Source of the DNA: Candidatus Coatesbacteria bacterium
Lineage (GTDB): Bacteria; JAFGND01
Direction: 5' to 3'
DNA length: 64,000 bases
NCBI GenBank assembly: GCA_016927185.1
Contig: JAFGND010000057.1
Span: forward strand, 1 to 64,000
Positions 26,513-29,589 of the stretch are shown piece after piece. The notes beneath the pieces were generated by a model. It had not been told where the DNA came from. It did no database searches and saw only the letters and a program-made list of their open reading frames with translations. The stretch's first letter is position 1. The number at the start of each line of letters is the position of its first letter. Position numbers and translations under genes: made by a program.

Positions 26513-27349
26513 ATGAAAAACCTAATACTTTCAATTATTATAACCATTTTGTTTTTAGACATTTTGCATGCCAGGAAAAGCCCCTTTGAGTTTTCACTGA
26601 GTTGGGAGCCATGGAATCCAGGTCTTAATTCAAAAATTGCTATTGCAGATACATCATTCGAACAGAAATCATTCAGTTTGAATGATGTTGGAATTGATTC
26701 AAAGTGGCTTACTCAATGTGTAAGTGTATCATTTGGAATTTCAGGGATTCATTACTTCAATTATACAAATCTTCCCTTTTCATATAGTGGAGAAAAGGTT
26801 CTCAACAAGCAGATATATTTCAAGGAATTGAGTTTTAATCCTAATGACAGCGTTTTATCTGCCATCGATTTATCTGTAAAGCAATTCAGCTATACCGGTT
26901 ATTTCATAAAAAAGAAGCATTTCAAGATTGGCATGGGAATATCTGCTCAGATTGCCAATCTGAATGCAAGCATGGAAAGCAGGATAACAGGATACAGGCA
27001 GAACTATGAAAGACAGCTAATTGCTCCTGTTCCATACTTGAATCTCGGCATAAATACTAAATATGTACAATTCGAAGGCAAGATAGGAACTATTTCCACT
27101 CTCTGGCTGAGCAAACTTTCAAGATATGAAGATTACTTTGATAAATCTGATACTGTTAAGGAGATTCTGGAAAAGAAGGGAAAGATTTTTCATTCTGAAG
27201 TAATCATTCAGACAAGACCCTTGTCTTATATGGCTTTAGGTCTGGGATACAGGAATTATAATGCGGTCTGGCAACTAGATGATTCCCATGGAGATATAAG
27301 ATTCGAGGGAATATTCATGCGAACAAGTTTCTATGCTCCATTTAAATAA
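26513..27349 (+). CDS. Hypothetical exported protein, probable outer-membrane beta-barrel
   Basis: Strong SD (AGGAGGAG); signal peptide; amphipathic beta-strand pattern (e.g. LGLGYR, FEGIF). Confidence 0.65.
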   Translation: MKNLILSIIITILFLDILHARKSPFEFSLSWEPWNPGLNSKIAIADTSFEQKSFSLNDVGIDSKWLTQCVSVSFGISGIHYFNYTNLPFSYSGEKVLNKQIYFKELSFNPNDSVLSAIDLSVKQFSYTGYFIKKKHFKIGMGISAQIANLNASMESRITGYRQNYERQLIAPVPYLNLGINTKYVQFEGKIGTISTLWLSKLSRYEDYFDKSDTVKEILEKKGKIFHSEVIIQTRPLSYMALGLGYRNYNAVWQLDDSHGDIRFEGIFMRTSFYAPFK

Positions 27350-27352
27350 AAT

Positions 27353-27379
27353 AAAAACCTGCAGATTTTGCAGGTTTTT
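27353..27379 (+). terminator. Rho-independent terminator
   Basis: AAAAACCTGCA-GATTT-TGCAGGTTTTT perfect inverted repeat right after the stop codon. Confidence 0.8.
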
Positions 27380-27392
27380 CTTTATTTAAGAC

Positions 27393-27431
27393 TTGCCATA
27401 TTTTATTTTTTCACTATATTAGAGTTGGAGG
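27393..27431 (+). promoter_or_regulatory. Putative sigma70 promoter and RBS of the beta-propeller lipoprotein gene
   Basis: TTGCCA (27393)-N16-TATATT (27415); GGAGG at 27427-27431, 7 nt before ATG 27439. Confidence 0.5.
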
Positions 27432-27438
27432 TATGAAA

Positions 27439-28602
27439 ATGAAAAATAGACTATTAAATATCGTAATTTCAATCAGCTTTCTGTTACTTGCAGGTTGCGA
27501 GAGTGATAATTTTCTTCCCTATGAACTGGATAATGAAAACTTGGGTCGCTCTTCACCTGACATTCCTTATTATTTATGGACAGAATCTTTTACTGAAAAC
27601 AATCTTGGTTATGCAGCCATAGTTGGAGGTAAATTGGTTGCTCTTTCATGGGATGGCAGTGCATATTGCATGAGAACCAGCAATGCTTCTTTGTTATGGA
27701 AACAGACAACTCCCGTATCATATGACTGAATGGGTGCAGGAATTGTAAGGAATCGTGTATTCCTGCTTTCAGACAAGGTTTATTTACTGGACATGGAGAA
27801 TGGAACAGAAATATGGTCTTATTCATCTCCGTTCAAGAACGCTGGCAGAACTTCCCCAGTATATGACGATCAATTAAACAGGCTTTTTGTAGTTTTTGAT
27901 AAAGGAATTATTGCAGCACTTGACTTCAATAATGGAAGTGAAATATGGTTGAAGTCATTGAGCGAATCACCTGGCTGCAGTCCTTTGTTATCTAAATATT
28001 TCTATGTAATAGCTAAAGATGGAAAACTTTATGCATTTGACAAGCAGAATGGCAATTCTATCTGGGTAAAGACTCTTGAAGAATCTTCATTTTCTGCAGG
28101 GAGTTTAGCTATAAACAAGAAATATTTGTTCGCAGGATACAAGAAGTCGATTAATTGCCTGAATCCCGAGAATGGAAATCTTATCTGGAAAAGCCTTCCT
28201 GATGTTTATATGGAAGGGACTTTCGGAGCAGTTGATGATAGCAGATTTTATTCAATTTCATCAGATAAGATCATTGCATTAGACATAAACAATGGCAGCA
28301 TTTTATGGGTTTTCAATCTGCCTACAAGCAATTTGACAACGACATTGACGCTTCATGCTGATAATGTACTTGTCAATGGTTTCAAGATATTTGCGTTGAA
28401 AAGGACAACCGGACAGTTTGTATGGTCTAAAAATGGATATGCTGCACCATATGGACCAATCACTGTTTCCAACAATATTGCCTACTTTGGATATCTTGAT
28501 GGAGCAGGGCTTTCTGCATTGAAATTGCCTGGTAATTATACAGGTAAAACATGGAATTTTTACAGGAGTGATTTAGCCAATTCATCATATCTTCCAGAAT
28601 AG
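27439..28602 (+). CDS. PQQ/BamB-type 8-bladed beta-propeller lipoprotein with one in-frame TGA (27727-27729); candidate selenoprotein, otherwise a pseudogene
   Basis: ORFs 27433-27729 and 27730-28602 share a frame and abut at TGA; lipobox LLAGC; A-L-D-x-x-x-G-x-x-x-W repeats run continuously across the TGA. Confidence 0.75.
27730..27770 (+). promoter_or_regulatory. SECIS-like RNA hairpin directly 3' of the in-frame UGA
   Basis: GCAGGAAT (27736-43) pairs perfectly with ATTCCTGC (27759-66); alternative fold AGGAAT-CGTGT-ATTCCT has G then U in the apical loop, 24 nt after the UGA. Confidence 0.5.
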
Positions 28603-28677
28603 AACACTATAACATTTTGCTTGACATTATTTACCGAGATATGTCTCTTTGGAATATCAAGTTAAAGATGAGGAAGT

Positions 28678-29589
28678 ATGGGCTGGCTAGATGAAGCTAA
28701 AGATCAATTACAAAGAGCTTTAGGCACAAAGAAAGTAATAAGAAAAAGACAGGATGGAGAAGAGGCTAATCTTTTATTAAAAGATCCTACTATATATCTG
28801 GATAAGCTTAACAATATAATTTCGAAGATATATAAGGGACAAGAGCCTTATGATTATTTCCTGAAATTTCAAAGTGCAAGAATATCACAGCTTTCAAGAG
28901 CTTCACAGCTTGAAAACGATGACACTAGTTATTTTGATTTAGAGCAGTTTCAAAAGAAATCAAGAATCCTTGAGGACGATTATGTTAATCTTATAAAAAA
29001 AATATACTCAGGAAAAAATATACATTCAACTTTTCCCATTCAGTTTTATAAGATACTGGTAAGGGGAGATTCTATTGATAATGATGTTTTCATTTATACC
29101 GGAGCATACAGCCTCTCGGAAGATGGCTATGATATATATATTCCTGTGATCTTTCTGCTTGACGGTACGCTTTTCTCATTTGTTTATCAGTTTTACGACA
29201 AACCTAGTGAAATATTATATGGTTCAAATTATATAGGGAATTCACTTGATTTGTATACTGTTCAGAAATCAGAAATGGATGTCAAATCCAGCAACAAAAT
29301 CCAGAAGGAAATAGTATTAATTCATACTGAAATAAATCCAGTGAAGCTGAAAAAATCAATCAGAAGAATGGAAGTTCTGAATTCCGGTAAATCAAAGACA
29401 TCAATAGTCCCTGAGGAAGAAAGCAAGAATTATTTCATAAAAGCTTATCGAATACTAAGAATGGCTTCATTCCTTGATTATACAAGGCAGGAGCATTTAT
29501 ATTCATTACTTGATCTTGTTGAACAGACAATACTGCCTGGTCACAAGAAATCATTGCTTGATAAAATTCCATTACTTGATGAAATTTAA
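28678..29589 (+). CDS. Hypothetical protein
   Basis: 303-aa ORF with GAGG SD and upstream TTGACA (28621); no motif recognised. Confidence 0.7.
   Translation: MGWLDEAKDQLQRALGTKKVIRKRQDGEEANLLLKDPTIYLDKLNNIISKIYKGQEPYDYFLKFQSARISQLSRASQLENDDTSYFDLEQFQKKSRILEDDYVNLIKKIYSGKNIHSTFPIQFYKILVRGDSIDNDVFIYTGAYSLSEDGYDIYIPVIFLLDGTLFSFVYQFYDKPSEILYGSNYIGNSLDLYTVQKSEMDVKSSNKIQKEIVLIHTEINPVKLKKSIRRMEVLNSGKSKTSIVPEEESKNYFIKAYRILRMASFLDYTRQEHLYSLLDLVEQTILPGHKKSLLDKIPLLDEI

Follow-up and report, generated by a model that had tools for sequence, protein, structure and literature searches.

To our knowledge, the bacterial selenoproteins described so far are nearly always enzymes with selenocysteine (Sec) in the place of a catalytic or redox Cys, and they have been found largely through Cys/Sec pairs. 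The hairpins (SECIS) that accompany the UGA in bacteria reportedly follow criteria given by Zhang and Gladyshev in 2005: an apical loop of 3-14 nt whose first two positions include a G, lying 16-37 nt from the UGA. The closest described genes on this side are the SelB/SECIS selenoproteins FdhA, SelD and the UxxC thioredoxin-fold proteins; on the side of protein fold they are the BamB/PQQ-like eight-bladed propeller lipoproteins (PF13360).

We analysed a stretch of 64,000 nucleotides (the window) from a Candidatus Coatesbacteria bacterium. A locus at 27439-28602, on the forward strand, has features of both groups. Like the SelB/SECIS genes, it has an in-frame UGA inside a continuous coding region, closely followed by a hairpin whose loop has a G within its first two nucleotides. 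It differs from them in lacking a Cys homolog at the UGA column and a redox motif, and by fold it is a repeat scaffold rather than an enzyme active site. With the BamB-like lipoproteins it has in common the PQQ_2 domain, the predicted fold and an N-terminal lipobox; compared with solved BamB chains it is 17-19% identical and carries the in-frame UGA. We propose that the locus is one propeller lipoprotein gene whose UGA is read as Sec by way of the hairpin, and we put the probability of this reading at roughly 55%. The main text of BSepDB (111 families; PMC13326102), which keeps its family tables in the supplement, contains none of the words propeller, PQQ, BamB and lipoprotein, and that of deep-Sep (PMC12013277), which likewise has supplementary tables, contains neither these four nor WD40. 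Literature searches on selenoproteins in connection with propellers, with WD40 or with in-frame UGA returned nothing relevant.

Two open reading frames share one frame across a single TGA

We re-read the sequence and found that two ORFs, one of 96 or 98 codons and one of 290, lie in one frame and are parted by the TGA at 27727-27729 alone (GAC TGA ATG GGT), as had been predicted. The upstream coding part (27439-27726, 96 codons) encodes a signal peptide, a lipobox (LLAGC, Cys codon at 27496-27498), an N-terminal strand and blade 1. Its ATG at 27439 lies 7 nt downstream of a Shine-Dalgarno sequence, GGAGG, at 27427-27431. ATG 27433 was also considered as a start and rejected, being too close to this GGAGG. 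The TGA is residue 99 of P0001, or residue 97 counting from ATG 27439. The downstream coding part (27730-28602, 290 codons, stop TAG) encodes blades 2-8.

The best promoter-like site in 27300-28750 is TTGCCA-16-TATATT at 27393-27420, a consensus match only, with 10 of 12 positions matching. In this region an extra T behind 27418 is present in the contigs of two other runs (X2 and X3, below). A terminator-like hairpin at 27353-27379 belongs to the upstream gene, and a scan of the region showed no terminator-like site between the two ORFs. ATG 27730 has no SD-like purine run upstream, and the downstream ORF product, read from the sequence, has no signal peptide. The original prediction was thus right to assign promoter, SD, lipobox and first blade to the upstream part and to describe the downstream ATG as lacking both SD and signal peptide. 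The read-through frame contains this single stop and no frameshift, with 290 codons open in a genome of 35% GC. TGA is otherwise an ordinary stop in this genome, as expected from the window, and terminates 559 of 2065 long open frames.

The predicted read-through product is an eight-bladed propeller

The read-through product would have a mass of about 41 kDa. An AlphaFold2 model of it (pLDDT 83.5, pTM 0.81) matched whole eight-bladed BamB chains with TM 0.72-0.74 over about 345-356 columns. Normalised by query, TM was 0.69-0.74 against BamB of E. coli, P. aeruginosa and K. pneumoniae. The PQQ_2 profile (PF13360) matched the downstream part with 89.6 bits (cut-off 27.6; E 3.1e-25), and one PQQ_2 match ran across the TGA (C94:27574-27972, 1 TGA). 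The in-frame UGA is inside one continuous, homologous coding region. The model and its superposition on BamB bear out the claim that eight blades are obtained only by reading through, and by profile score and modelled fold the product is a BamB/PQQ-like eight-bladed propeller lipoprotein. This does not make it the BamB subunit of a BAM complex, because the genome has very many paralogs (see the counts of propeller stretches below).

In the model, the strands of the upstream part span residues 46-51, 58-64, 67-72, 76-81 and 87-92 of P0001. The TGA falls between strands 87-92 and 103-105, in a loop that would connect blade 1, at its outer strand, with the inner strand of blade 2. In the usual propeller geometry such loops line the face of the central channel, where ligands bind. 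The strand list, read by analogy with BamB, suggests that the N-terminal strand closes blade 8. Residue 99, if Sec, would sit on the face around the central channel, in the loop from blade 1 to blade 2 of an exported lipoprotein, and at the mouth of the channel it might take part in redox chemistry or in that of metals or chalcogens. No redox motif was found next to the TGA. It had also been argued that the UGA occupies a blade position that holds Cys elsewhere in the protein. The spacing is as described, with the TGA at W89+10 and Cys182 at W172+10 (P0001 numbering). Cys182 itself is not conserved, being Thr in P0029, which is 41% identical to the downstream part, and so the argument from the other blade is weak.

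The TGA is kept among strains

The TGA at 27727-27729 was unchanged in contigs of all three covering runs, which come from three studies: X1 (a possible source of the window), X2 (record 4) and X3 (record 11). The X2 and X3 contigs differ from the window at six other nearby places and so are not copies of it. At these three bases, where a check had been suggested, contigs of independent runs have TGA, and no sense codon.

Differences between strains in the gene were synonymous in 8 cases and non-synonymous in 4 (p = 0.001 for at least 8 of 12 synonymous if neutral). They divided into 4 S:0 N in the upstream part and 4 S:4 N in the downstream part (p = 0.07, alone not significant), the latter to be set against 7:1 and 8:2 in the neighbouring genes. 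Selection acts on both halves of the gene, the p of 0.07 applying to the downstream half taken alone. The signs by which a pseudogene would be recognised (a neutral pattern, further stops, frameshifts) were not seen.

A relative of the upstream part, P0037 (96 aa), is encoded on another contig, of 1390 nt. The two proteins are 75% identical, and judged from its protein sequence P0037 stops after the same ...SYD. Identity is 53/64 in the blade region (83%) versus 19/32 in the signal and linker part.

The selenocysteine machinery is present and in use

Search of the genome for the Sec genes, as the original prediction had advised, recovered all four. An intact selA lies at C83:7374-8537, selB on contig C22, selD on C1 and tRNA-Sec on C102 (68.3 bits against RF01852, with ARAGORN in agreement); all are above curated cut-offs. 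The selD gene itself has an in-frame TGA, in SCAG-U-ASK. No other tRNA in the genome has the anticodon UCA of tRNA-Sec; tRNA-Trp has anticodon CCA, and there is no suppressor tRNA besides tRNA-Sec. Because a codon-bias coding score alone failed to part real from antisense frames, open-frame filters and paralog bridging were used in its place. At least eight other genes carry canonical Sec evidence. The genome has a molybdopterin (FdhA-type) gene with one TGA and genes of UxxC thioredoxin-fold type, and at four TGA sites the gene's own paralogs carry Cys (10/10, 9/10, 1/1 and 1/1). This genome possesses and uses a Sec system. Since the TGA is kept across strains and the machinery is complete, the locus probably encodes a new kind of selenoprotein. 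The UGA at 27727-27729 would be decoded by tRNA-Sec and SelB, with the hairpin described below as a putative SECIS that aids decoding.

A SECIS-like hairpin follows the TGA

Folding and a SECIS-criteria scan placed a hairpin with two registers at 27736-27766 (forward strand). The exact 8-bp inverted repeat that had been noticed after the TGA is there (GCAGGAAT 27736-43 / ATTCCTGC 27759-66). In register (a), GCAGGAA, a bulged U and UGUA lead into the loop AGGAAUCG, which is closed by UGUA and UUCCUGC and starts 21 nt from the U of the UGA. The alternative register put forward earlier is there as well: in this register (b), AGGAAU (27748-53) pairs with AUUCCU (27759-64) around the loop CGUGU (27754-58), which starts at 27 nt. 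The loop's Arg codon CGT is indeed rare, making up 4% of Arg codons in the genome against 60% for AGA and 30% for AGG. The hairpin has an energy of -8.2 kcal/mol in the reference sequence and -13.1 with 27746C, the allele of X2, X3 and X7. This change, the sole substitution seen in the hairpin, converts a G.U pair to G-C and so strengthens the stem.

The hairpin fits the permissive bacterial SECIS consensus described above. Its loop starts at 21 nt, and the scan that gave this value placed the loops of the genome's four compact sure SECIS at 19-21 nt. Half of the eight sure SECIS in the genome (selD, fdhA and two thioredoxin-fold genes) have a common compact form, defined here as a stem of at least 5 bp and a loop of 3-7 nt with GU 18-23 nt from the U. 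The candidate does not have this form: its GU loop is at +28, about 7 nt farther from the UGA. No Rfam match was found around the TGA site. The comparison with known SECIS thus came out divided, in favour of the hairpin by the permissive criteria and against it by the genome's own compact form and by the resampling that follows.

Against its own dinucleotide shuffles the hairpin had z = -1.0, and 33 of 200 shuffles folded equally well. Of 600 in-frame coding positions drawn at random from the AT-rich genome, 3.3% reached -8.2 kcal/mol. For the value of -13.1 given by 27746C, the share was 0.7% among random positions and 1.4% among 1500 synonymous resamplings. When the amino-acid sequence was held fixed, 8.5-10% of synonymous resamplings reached -8.2 under the generic criteria, and 12.7% did as well when the compact form was scored with relaxed distance. 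With the peptide controlled, the hairpin is only weakly significant (p 0.085-0.13).

The TGA column holds no Cys in homologs

According to the deep-Sep paper (PMC12013277), homologs with Cys exist for nearly every known selenoprotein. The Cys/TGA pairing proposed as a test failed at this locus. None of 27 aligned homologs has Cys at the aligned column, which holds E, S, N, G or a gap, and the two bridging paralogs have Y and I there. None of the homologs that cover the TGA column is above 41% identity.

Protein searches, including those with region 100-190 and among shorter proteins, did not find the downstream ORF of the P0037 relative. The search among proteins of near length gave 26 matches from 4643 candidates, with only the window's own fragment above 25% identity. 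That among shorter proteins matched two of 212 candidates, one being P0037 and the other the fragment from the window itself. At the DNA level, two alignments against metagenome contigs gave 351 and 276 pattern matches, out of which only one locus (23% identical) emerged, and two against genome contigs gave 154 and 132, none related. Forty genome relatives were all related at the level of 'same domain' only, the best non-self match being 29% identical.

Other propeller genes carry an in-frame TGA

The genome contains a large propeller family, with 229 PQQ_2 and 125 WD40 stretches. In-frame stops bridged by paralogs in these genes were TGA in six cases, TAA in one and TAG in none; with an expected TGA share of 26%, the excess of TGA has p of about 0.001-0.004. 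Apart from the candidate, five genes are interrupted by one TGA each (C29:2897-4183, C38:16295-17542, C6:1978-3330, C10:1-1431 and C38:14812-16284). Like the candidate, they encode exported WD40 or PQQ-like propellers with the TGA at a non-Cys column; most of them have a C-terminal sorting-like domain where the candidate has a lipobox.

Compact GU-loop hairpins at +20 to +22 follow three of these five sites (C29, C38:16702 and C6), against a background of 0.75%. Two of the three were reached by 0/400 and 1/400 synonymous resamplings. The site at C6:2670 resembles the candidate in its loop, CGUGU, and in the placing of the TGA at the same blade position, two residues before an SSP-type motif. 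At C38:16702 the UGA is followed directly by AUG, as at the candidate site. The TGA at C38:15912 takes a conserved Gly column (G in 169 bridging alignments), is one step from GGA and has a weak hairpin, so that this gene looks broken. One PQQ gene with TAA at a column that holds Tyr in 192 bridging paralog alignments is a clear pseudogene.

Tentatively, this uncultured, deeply branching anaerobe may make a set of exported propeller selenoproteins with Sec in blade-entrance loops on the ligand face and without Cys counterparts, a wider proposal that we regard as doubtful at present. The set would comprise this gene and C6:2670 among the PQQ/BamB-like propellers and C29:3172, C38:16702 and perhaps C10:705 among those of WD40 type.

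Alternative explanations

The TGA could be a functional stop that involves no Sec, either in a split gene with reinitiation at UGA-AUG or with low-level near-cognate read-through, for example by tRNA-Trp. An ATG directly after the TGA, here and at C38:16702, is what a coupled ORF pair would have, and a kept stop between conserved halves fits this explanation as well as it fits Sec; the column without Cys and the weakly significant hairpin also agree with it. We nevertheless consider it unlikely. The second ORF has neither SD nor signal peptide and the lipobox is on the first, so the split products would be in different compartments. The first would amount to one blade and one strand and the second would lack them, only the fusion matching a closed eight-bladed BamB, and this despite 83% conservation between the blade-1 region and P0037. 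A hairpin 9 nt past the start codon would probably hinder initiation, and the CCA anticodon of tRNA-Trp, with tRNA-Sec as the only suppressor, argues against near-cognate decoding. A nonsense mutation in one of the many propeller paralogs, with the hairpin arising by chance from the peptide GAGIVRNRVFLL, is improbable to a similar degree. The very large family does include broken members (the TAA at a Tyr column and the TGA at the Gly column of C38:15912), and decay would be in line with the missing Cys pairing, a hairpin p of about 0.09-0.13 given the peptide, a downstream half more relaxed than the neighbouring genes, and the failure of protein searches to find a downstream ORF for the P0037 relative. 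It is difficult to reconcile with a frame that has one stop, no frameshift and 290 open codons at 35% GC, or with 8 S:4 N among strains that all have the TGA. The stop position is also the same in a relative whose protein has diverged by 25%, with the folded part spared, and interrupted propeller genes show the excess of TGA over TAA and TAG.

A false TGA through sequencing or assembly error might be suspected in an assembly of 109 contigs and 93% completeness. With the same TGA in the independent X2 and X3 contigs from other studies, and with P0037 ending at the same codon, we regard such an error as extremely improbable. We thus favour reading the UGA as Sec. What stands of the original prediction of a Sec-containing propeller is the machinery, the kept TGA and a hairpin acceptable by permissive criteria; the Cys pairing has fallen away, and compared with the compact SECIS of this genome the hairpin is displaced and of lower specificity.

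Implications and occurrence

If the UGA is read as Sec, the 21st amino acid would stand in a structural context new for it, an exported propeller at a column that is never Cys, and it would serve binding or chemistry in a repeat scaffold in a way that Cys does not. Such proteins would also mark a blind spot of homology-based selenoproteome annotation, since pipelines built on Cys/Sec pairs cannot find them; the same genome holds four or five parallel cases. If the TGA were instead a conserved stop with reinitiation, a propeller split between compartments would be unusual and also worth knowing. The neighbouring genes gave no hint of function, and none of the sequencing runs listed as holding the gene was an RNA run. 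Near-identical DNA was found in contigs of a run labelled biogas fermenter (X2, share 0.70) and of one labelled sediment (X1, the possible source).

A single TGA divides a propeller lipoprotein gene

The gene at 27439-28602 consists of an ORF of 96 or 98 codons and one of 290 codons, which, as the original prediction of a new selenoprotein had read them, share a frame and are separated solely by the TGA at 27727-27729. The first ORF has a signal peptide with a lipobox (LLAGC), and its likely start is the ATG at 27439, 7 nt after a Shine-Dalgarno sequence (GGAGG, 27427-31). It is preceded by a promoter-like site (TTGCCA-16-TATATT, 27393-27420) and by a terminator-like hairpin of the upstream gene (27353-27379). 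As predicted, the second ORF has neither a Shine-Dalgarno sequence nor a signal peptide; no terminator-like site was found between the two ORFs. Contigs from two sequencing runs, X2 and X3, carry one additional T behind 27418, which falls in the promoter-like site's second (-10) hexamer.

The read-through product (P0001) matched PQQ_2/BamB-type propellers in Pfam (89.6 bits; cut-off 27.6). AlphaFold2, with a 28-sequence alignment, gave a model with a pLDDT of 83.5 and a pTM of 0.81, and a Foldseek search with this model matched entire 8-bladed BamB chains (TM 0.72-0.74, about 345-356 columns), in agreement with the eight blades proposed for the read-through. In the model, an N-terminal strand (residues 46-51) and blade 1 (residues 58-92) come from the first ORF, and residue 99, which corresponds to the TGA, falls within the loop (93-102) leading to the first strand of blade 2. 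Counting strands gives the last blade three C-terminal ones; we infer that the N-terminal strand may close the ring as in BamB.

The TGA is retained among strains, and a diverged relative stops at the same codon

Eight runs were listed as holding part of the stretch and contigs of four were compared. A sense codon in other reads would have spoken against recoding, but the contigs of X1 (possibly the source of the window), X2 (record 4, 26996-27823) and X3 (record 11, 27209-28075) cover the TGA without difference; that of a further run, X7, starts past it, at 27732. X2 and X3, from other studies, show six listed differences from the window there and thus are not copies of it. The same codon in three runs rules out a sequencing or assembly error, to which we assign a negligible probability.

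Strain differences in the gene were compared with a neutral expectation of 22%, the share of synonymous sites. All 4 upstream of the TGA were synonymous (4 to 0 non-synonymous; p = 0.002), downstream there were 4 of each kind (4/8, p = 0.07), and the whole gene had 8/12 synonymous (p = 0.001). Neighbouring genes gave synonymous to non-synonymous ratios of 7:1 and 8:2. Because all compared genomes carry the TGA, this constraint acted with the stop in place.

The lineage is isolated, since all 40 listed genome relatives of the assembly were 'same domain' only; the best non-self match was 29% identical. A word-indexed protein search returned nothing above 25% identity except the window's own fragment, and an exhaustive HMMER search gave 17811 hits (E ≤ 0.001), with two informative proteins among the best 150. 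One of these, P0037 (96 aa, on a 1390-nt contig), is 75% identical to residues 3-98 of P0001 and ends in the same ...SYD as the upstream ORF. Identity was 53/64 in the blade region and 19/32 in the signal and linker part, the pattern expected of a protein under selection. As P0037 ends at the same codon, the stop there predates 25% protein divergence, despite which both halves of the window gene are intact. The other, P0029 (277 aa, first residue L), aligns with residues 112-388 at 41% identity; a contig end probably truncates it. The protein searches found no ORF for the downstream half in the P0037 relative; this counts mildly against selenocysteine (Sec), because decay, as well as contig geometry, could explain the absence.

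The genome encodes Sec machinery and selenoproteins

The assembly (2.99 Mb) comprises 109 contigs, numbered here with a C; the window's contig is C94. The complete set of selA (intact), selB, selD and tRNA-Sec, a prerequisite of the prediction, was found above curated cut-offs. Among the tRNAs only tRNA-Sec has the anticodon UCA (that of tRNA-Trp is CCA), and TGA ends 559 of 2065 long frames, confirming it as an ordinary stop.

In-frame TGA codons were found in selD (SCAG-U-ASK), once in a molybdopterin (FdhA-type) gene (...CARL-U-HS) and in thioredoxin-fold genes with U-PYC, U-PSC and U-NSC. In four genes, paralog bridging aligned Cys with the TGA (10/10, 9/10, 1/1 and 1/1 alignments). The 10/10 and 9/10 belong to two paralogous exported proteins (C66:53393-55246 (+) and C43:338-1342 (+)), which are for this reason likely to be true selenoproteins. 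For one of this pair the aligned paralog has a CGSCWAF stretch opposite the TGA, which we take to be a papain-like motif; C43:338-1342 ends early, at a TAA, relative to its paralog.

The hairpin is moderately specific

The predicted perfect 8-bp inverted repeat after the TGA is exact. Folding of 27727-27790 yielded -13.8 kcal/mol, no better than its own shuffles (z = -1.0; 33/200 folded equally well). Structures were also scored by script under permissive bacterial SECIS criteria, reportedly those used by Zhang and Gladyshev in 2005. The best one was GCAGGAA / bulged U / UGUA, with loop AGGAAUCG from 21 nt after the U (-8.2 kcal/mol). Of 600 in-frame coding positions drawn at random from the genome, 3.3% equalled or bettered it, and 8.5-10% of synonymous resamplings were as good. 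A single substitution was observed within the hairpin, 27746 T>C (Val>Ala; in X2, X3 and X7), which replaces a G.U pair with G-C. With the C allele the hairpin reached -13.1 kcal/mol, equalled at 0.7% of random positions and in 1.4% of 1500 synonymous resamplings. Since 18 of the 93 single-base variants of the stretch strengthen the hairpin, this one change is not significant alone; the resampling test is itself weak, as the genome's sure SECIS elements span 0.75% to 38%.

The candidate hairpin lacks a compact form that selD, fdhA and two thioredoxin-fold genes, four of the eight sure cases in the genome, have in common. This form, partly post hoc since it was defined after the hairpins were seen, is an uninterrupted stem of at least 5 bp and a 3-7-nt loop with GU, its G 18-23 nt from the U. 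The candidate's compact register (AGGAAU / CGUGU / AUUCCU) has its G at 28 and so lies outside. A 6-bp compact version with G at 18-30 occurs at 1.6% of 20000 positions, or 12.7% with the peptide fixed. Longer spacing has a precedent in C43:704 (Cys in 9/10 opposite the TGA), with a loop at 30.

Interrupted propeller genes have an excess of TGA

PQQ_2 matched 229 stretches of the 3-Mb genome and WD40 matched 125. A common C-terminal domain of ~70 aa (...SPNPF...IYSLTGQLI...GVYIVKAG..KIVKIN) occurs in many of these proteins and resembles a secretion-sorting domain. In a hairpin-blind test, in-frame stops across which paralogs from the same genome aligned (E below 1e-30) were 9 TGA, 2 TAA and 1 TAG (query sets of 302, 512 and 246). 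Propeller genes accounted for 6 TGA, 1 TAA and 0 TAG; from codon usage, TGA is expected to make up 26% of nonsense mutations (p about 0.001-0.004). The TGA sites were the window gene, C6:2670, C38:15912, C38:16702, C10:705 and C29:3172. Bridging paralogs had Cys opposite the TGA at 0/6 of these, so that the Cys/TGA pairing sought for the window gene was not seen. Of the other five sites, three had the compact form, with a GU loop and a stem of 6-9 bp (background 0.75%).

The WD40 propeller gene with C29:3172 (C29:2897-4183 (-); 428 codons, one TGA, ...GHTQRI-U-AVAWYP) has a hairpin (-12.6 kcal/mol) whose 8-bp stem carries a GUC loop 20 nt from the U, loop and distance being as in selD. Under generic criteria fixed beforehand, 0/400 synonymous resamplings were as good; the paralogs have Y, V or T in this column and no Cys. 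C38:16702, in a WD40 gene (C38:16295-17542 (-)) with a UGA-AUG junction like that of the window gene, has a hairpin of -12.2 kcal/mol (1/400 under the same criteria), with the loop GUUU on a 9-bp stem at 22 nt, and A, S, G, I or V in the column. The PQQ-type paralog with C6:2670 (C6:1978-3330 (-); WKYRH-U-CSSPICVSD) has its TGA at the same blade place as the window gene, two residues ahead of an SSP-type motif, and shares the loop CGUGU, here on a 6-bp stem at 20 nt; its hairpin is weak (-4.3 kcal/mol). The WD40 gene with C10:705 (C10:1-1431 (-); ...LSGG-U-HYVVRYWE) runs off the contig end and has a moderate hairpin of -6.0 kcal/mol, with GGGA as its loop at 22 nt, and a variable column that includes W. 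Two genes look like true casualties of the propeller family: C38:14812-16284 (-) (SSPCVSD-x-VVYVGS, weak hairpin), with a TGA (C38:15912) where 169 bridging paralog alignments have Gly, and, on C47, a PQQ gene with TAA where 192 have Tyr.

Sec read-through and its alternatives

We put the probability that UGA 27727-27729 is read through as Sec at roughly 0.55. This reading accounts for all positive observations; it rests on a moderately specific hairpin and lacks the Cys pair. That the gene is instead a decaying pseudogene would suit the size of the propeller family and the missing Cys pairing, but we consider it unlikely given the bias of strain differences to synonymous changes, 290 intact codons in a 35% GC genome, the diverged P0037 stopping at the same codon and the TGA excess among interrupted propeller genes. 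We are equally doubtful of a functional stop without Sec, conserved and followed by reinitiation at the adjoining AUG: the UGA-AUG junction fits, but outside the cell it would leave a lipoprotein made of blade 1 and, inside, a signal-less propeller with an incomplete ring.

If Sec is inserted, the mechanism would be ordinary SelB/SECIS recoding; unusual relative to other such selenoproteins are the exported BamB-like propeller fold and the missing Cys counterpart. A full-text literature search for propeller selenoproteins gave nothing relevant. The BSepDB paper (PMC13326102) does not mention propeller, PQQ, BamB or lipoprotein in its main text, and the deep-Sep paper (PMC12013277) contains neither these terms nor WD40, though the supplementary family tables of either may list a propeller family.

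A 243-codon exported protein (C68:81443-82174 (-), TGA C68:81658, ...KNCGG-U-GQTWEQ) is a candidate for a further selenoprotein; its hairpin (-9.5 kcal/mol) has a 7-bp stem and, at 20 nt, a GUU loop, with 1.5% of resamplings as good.
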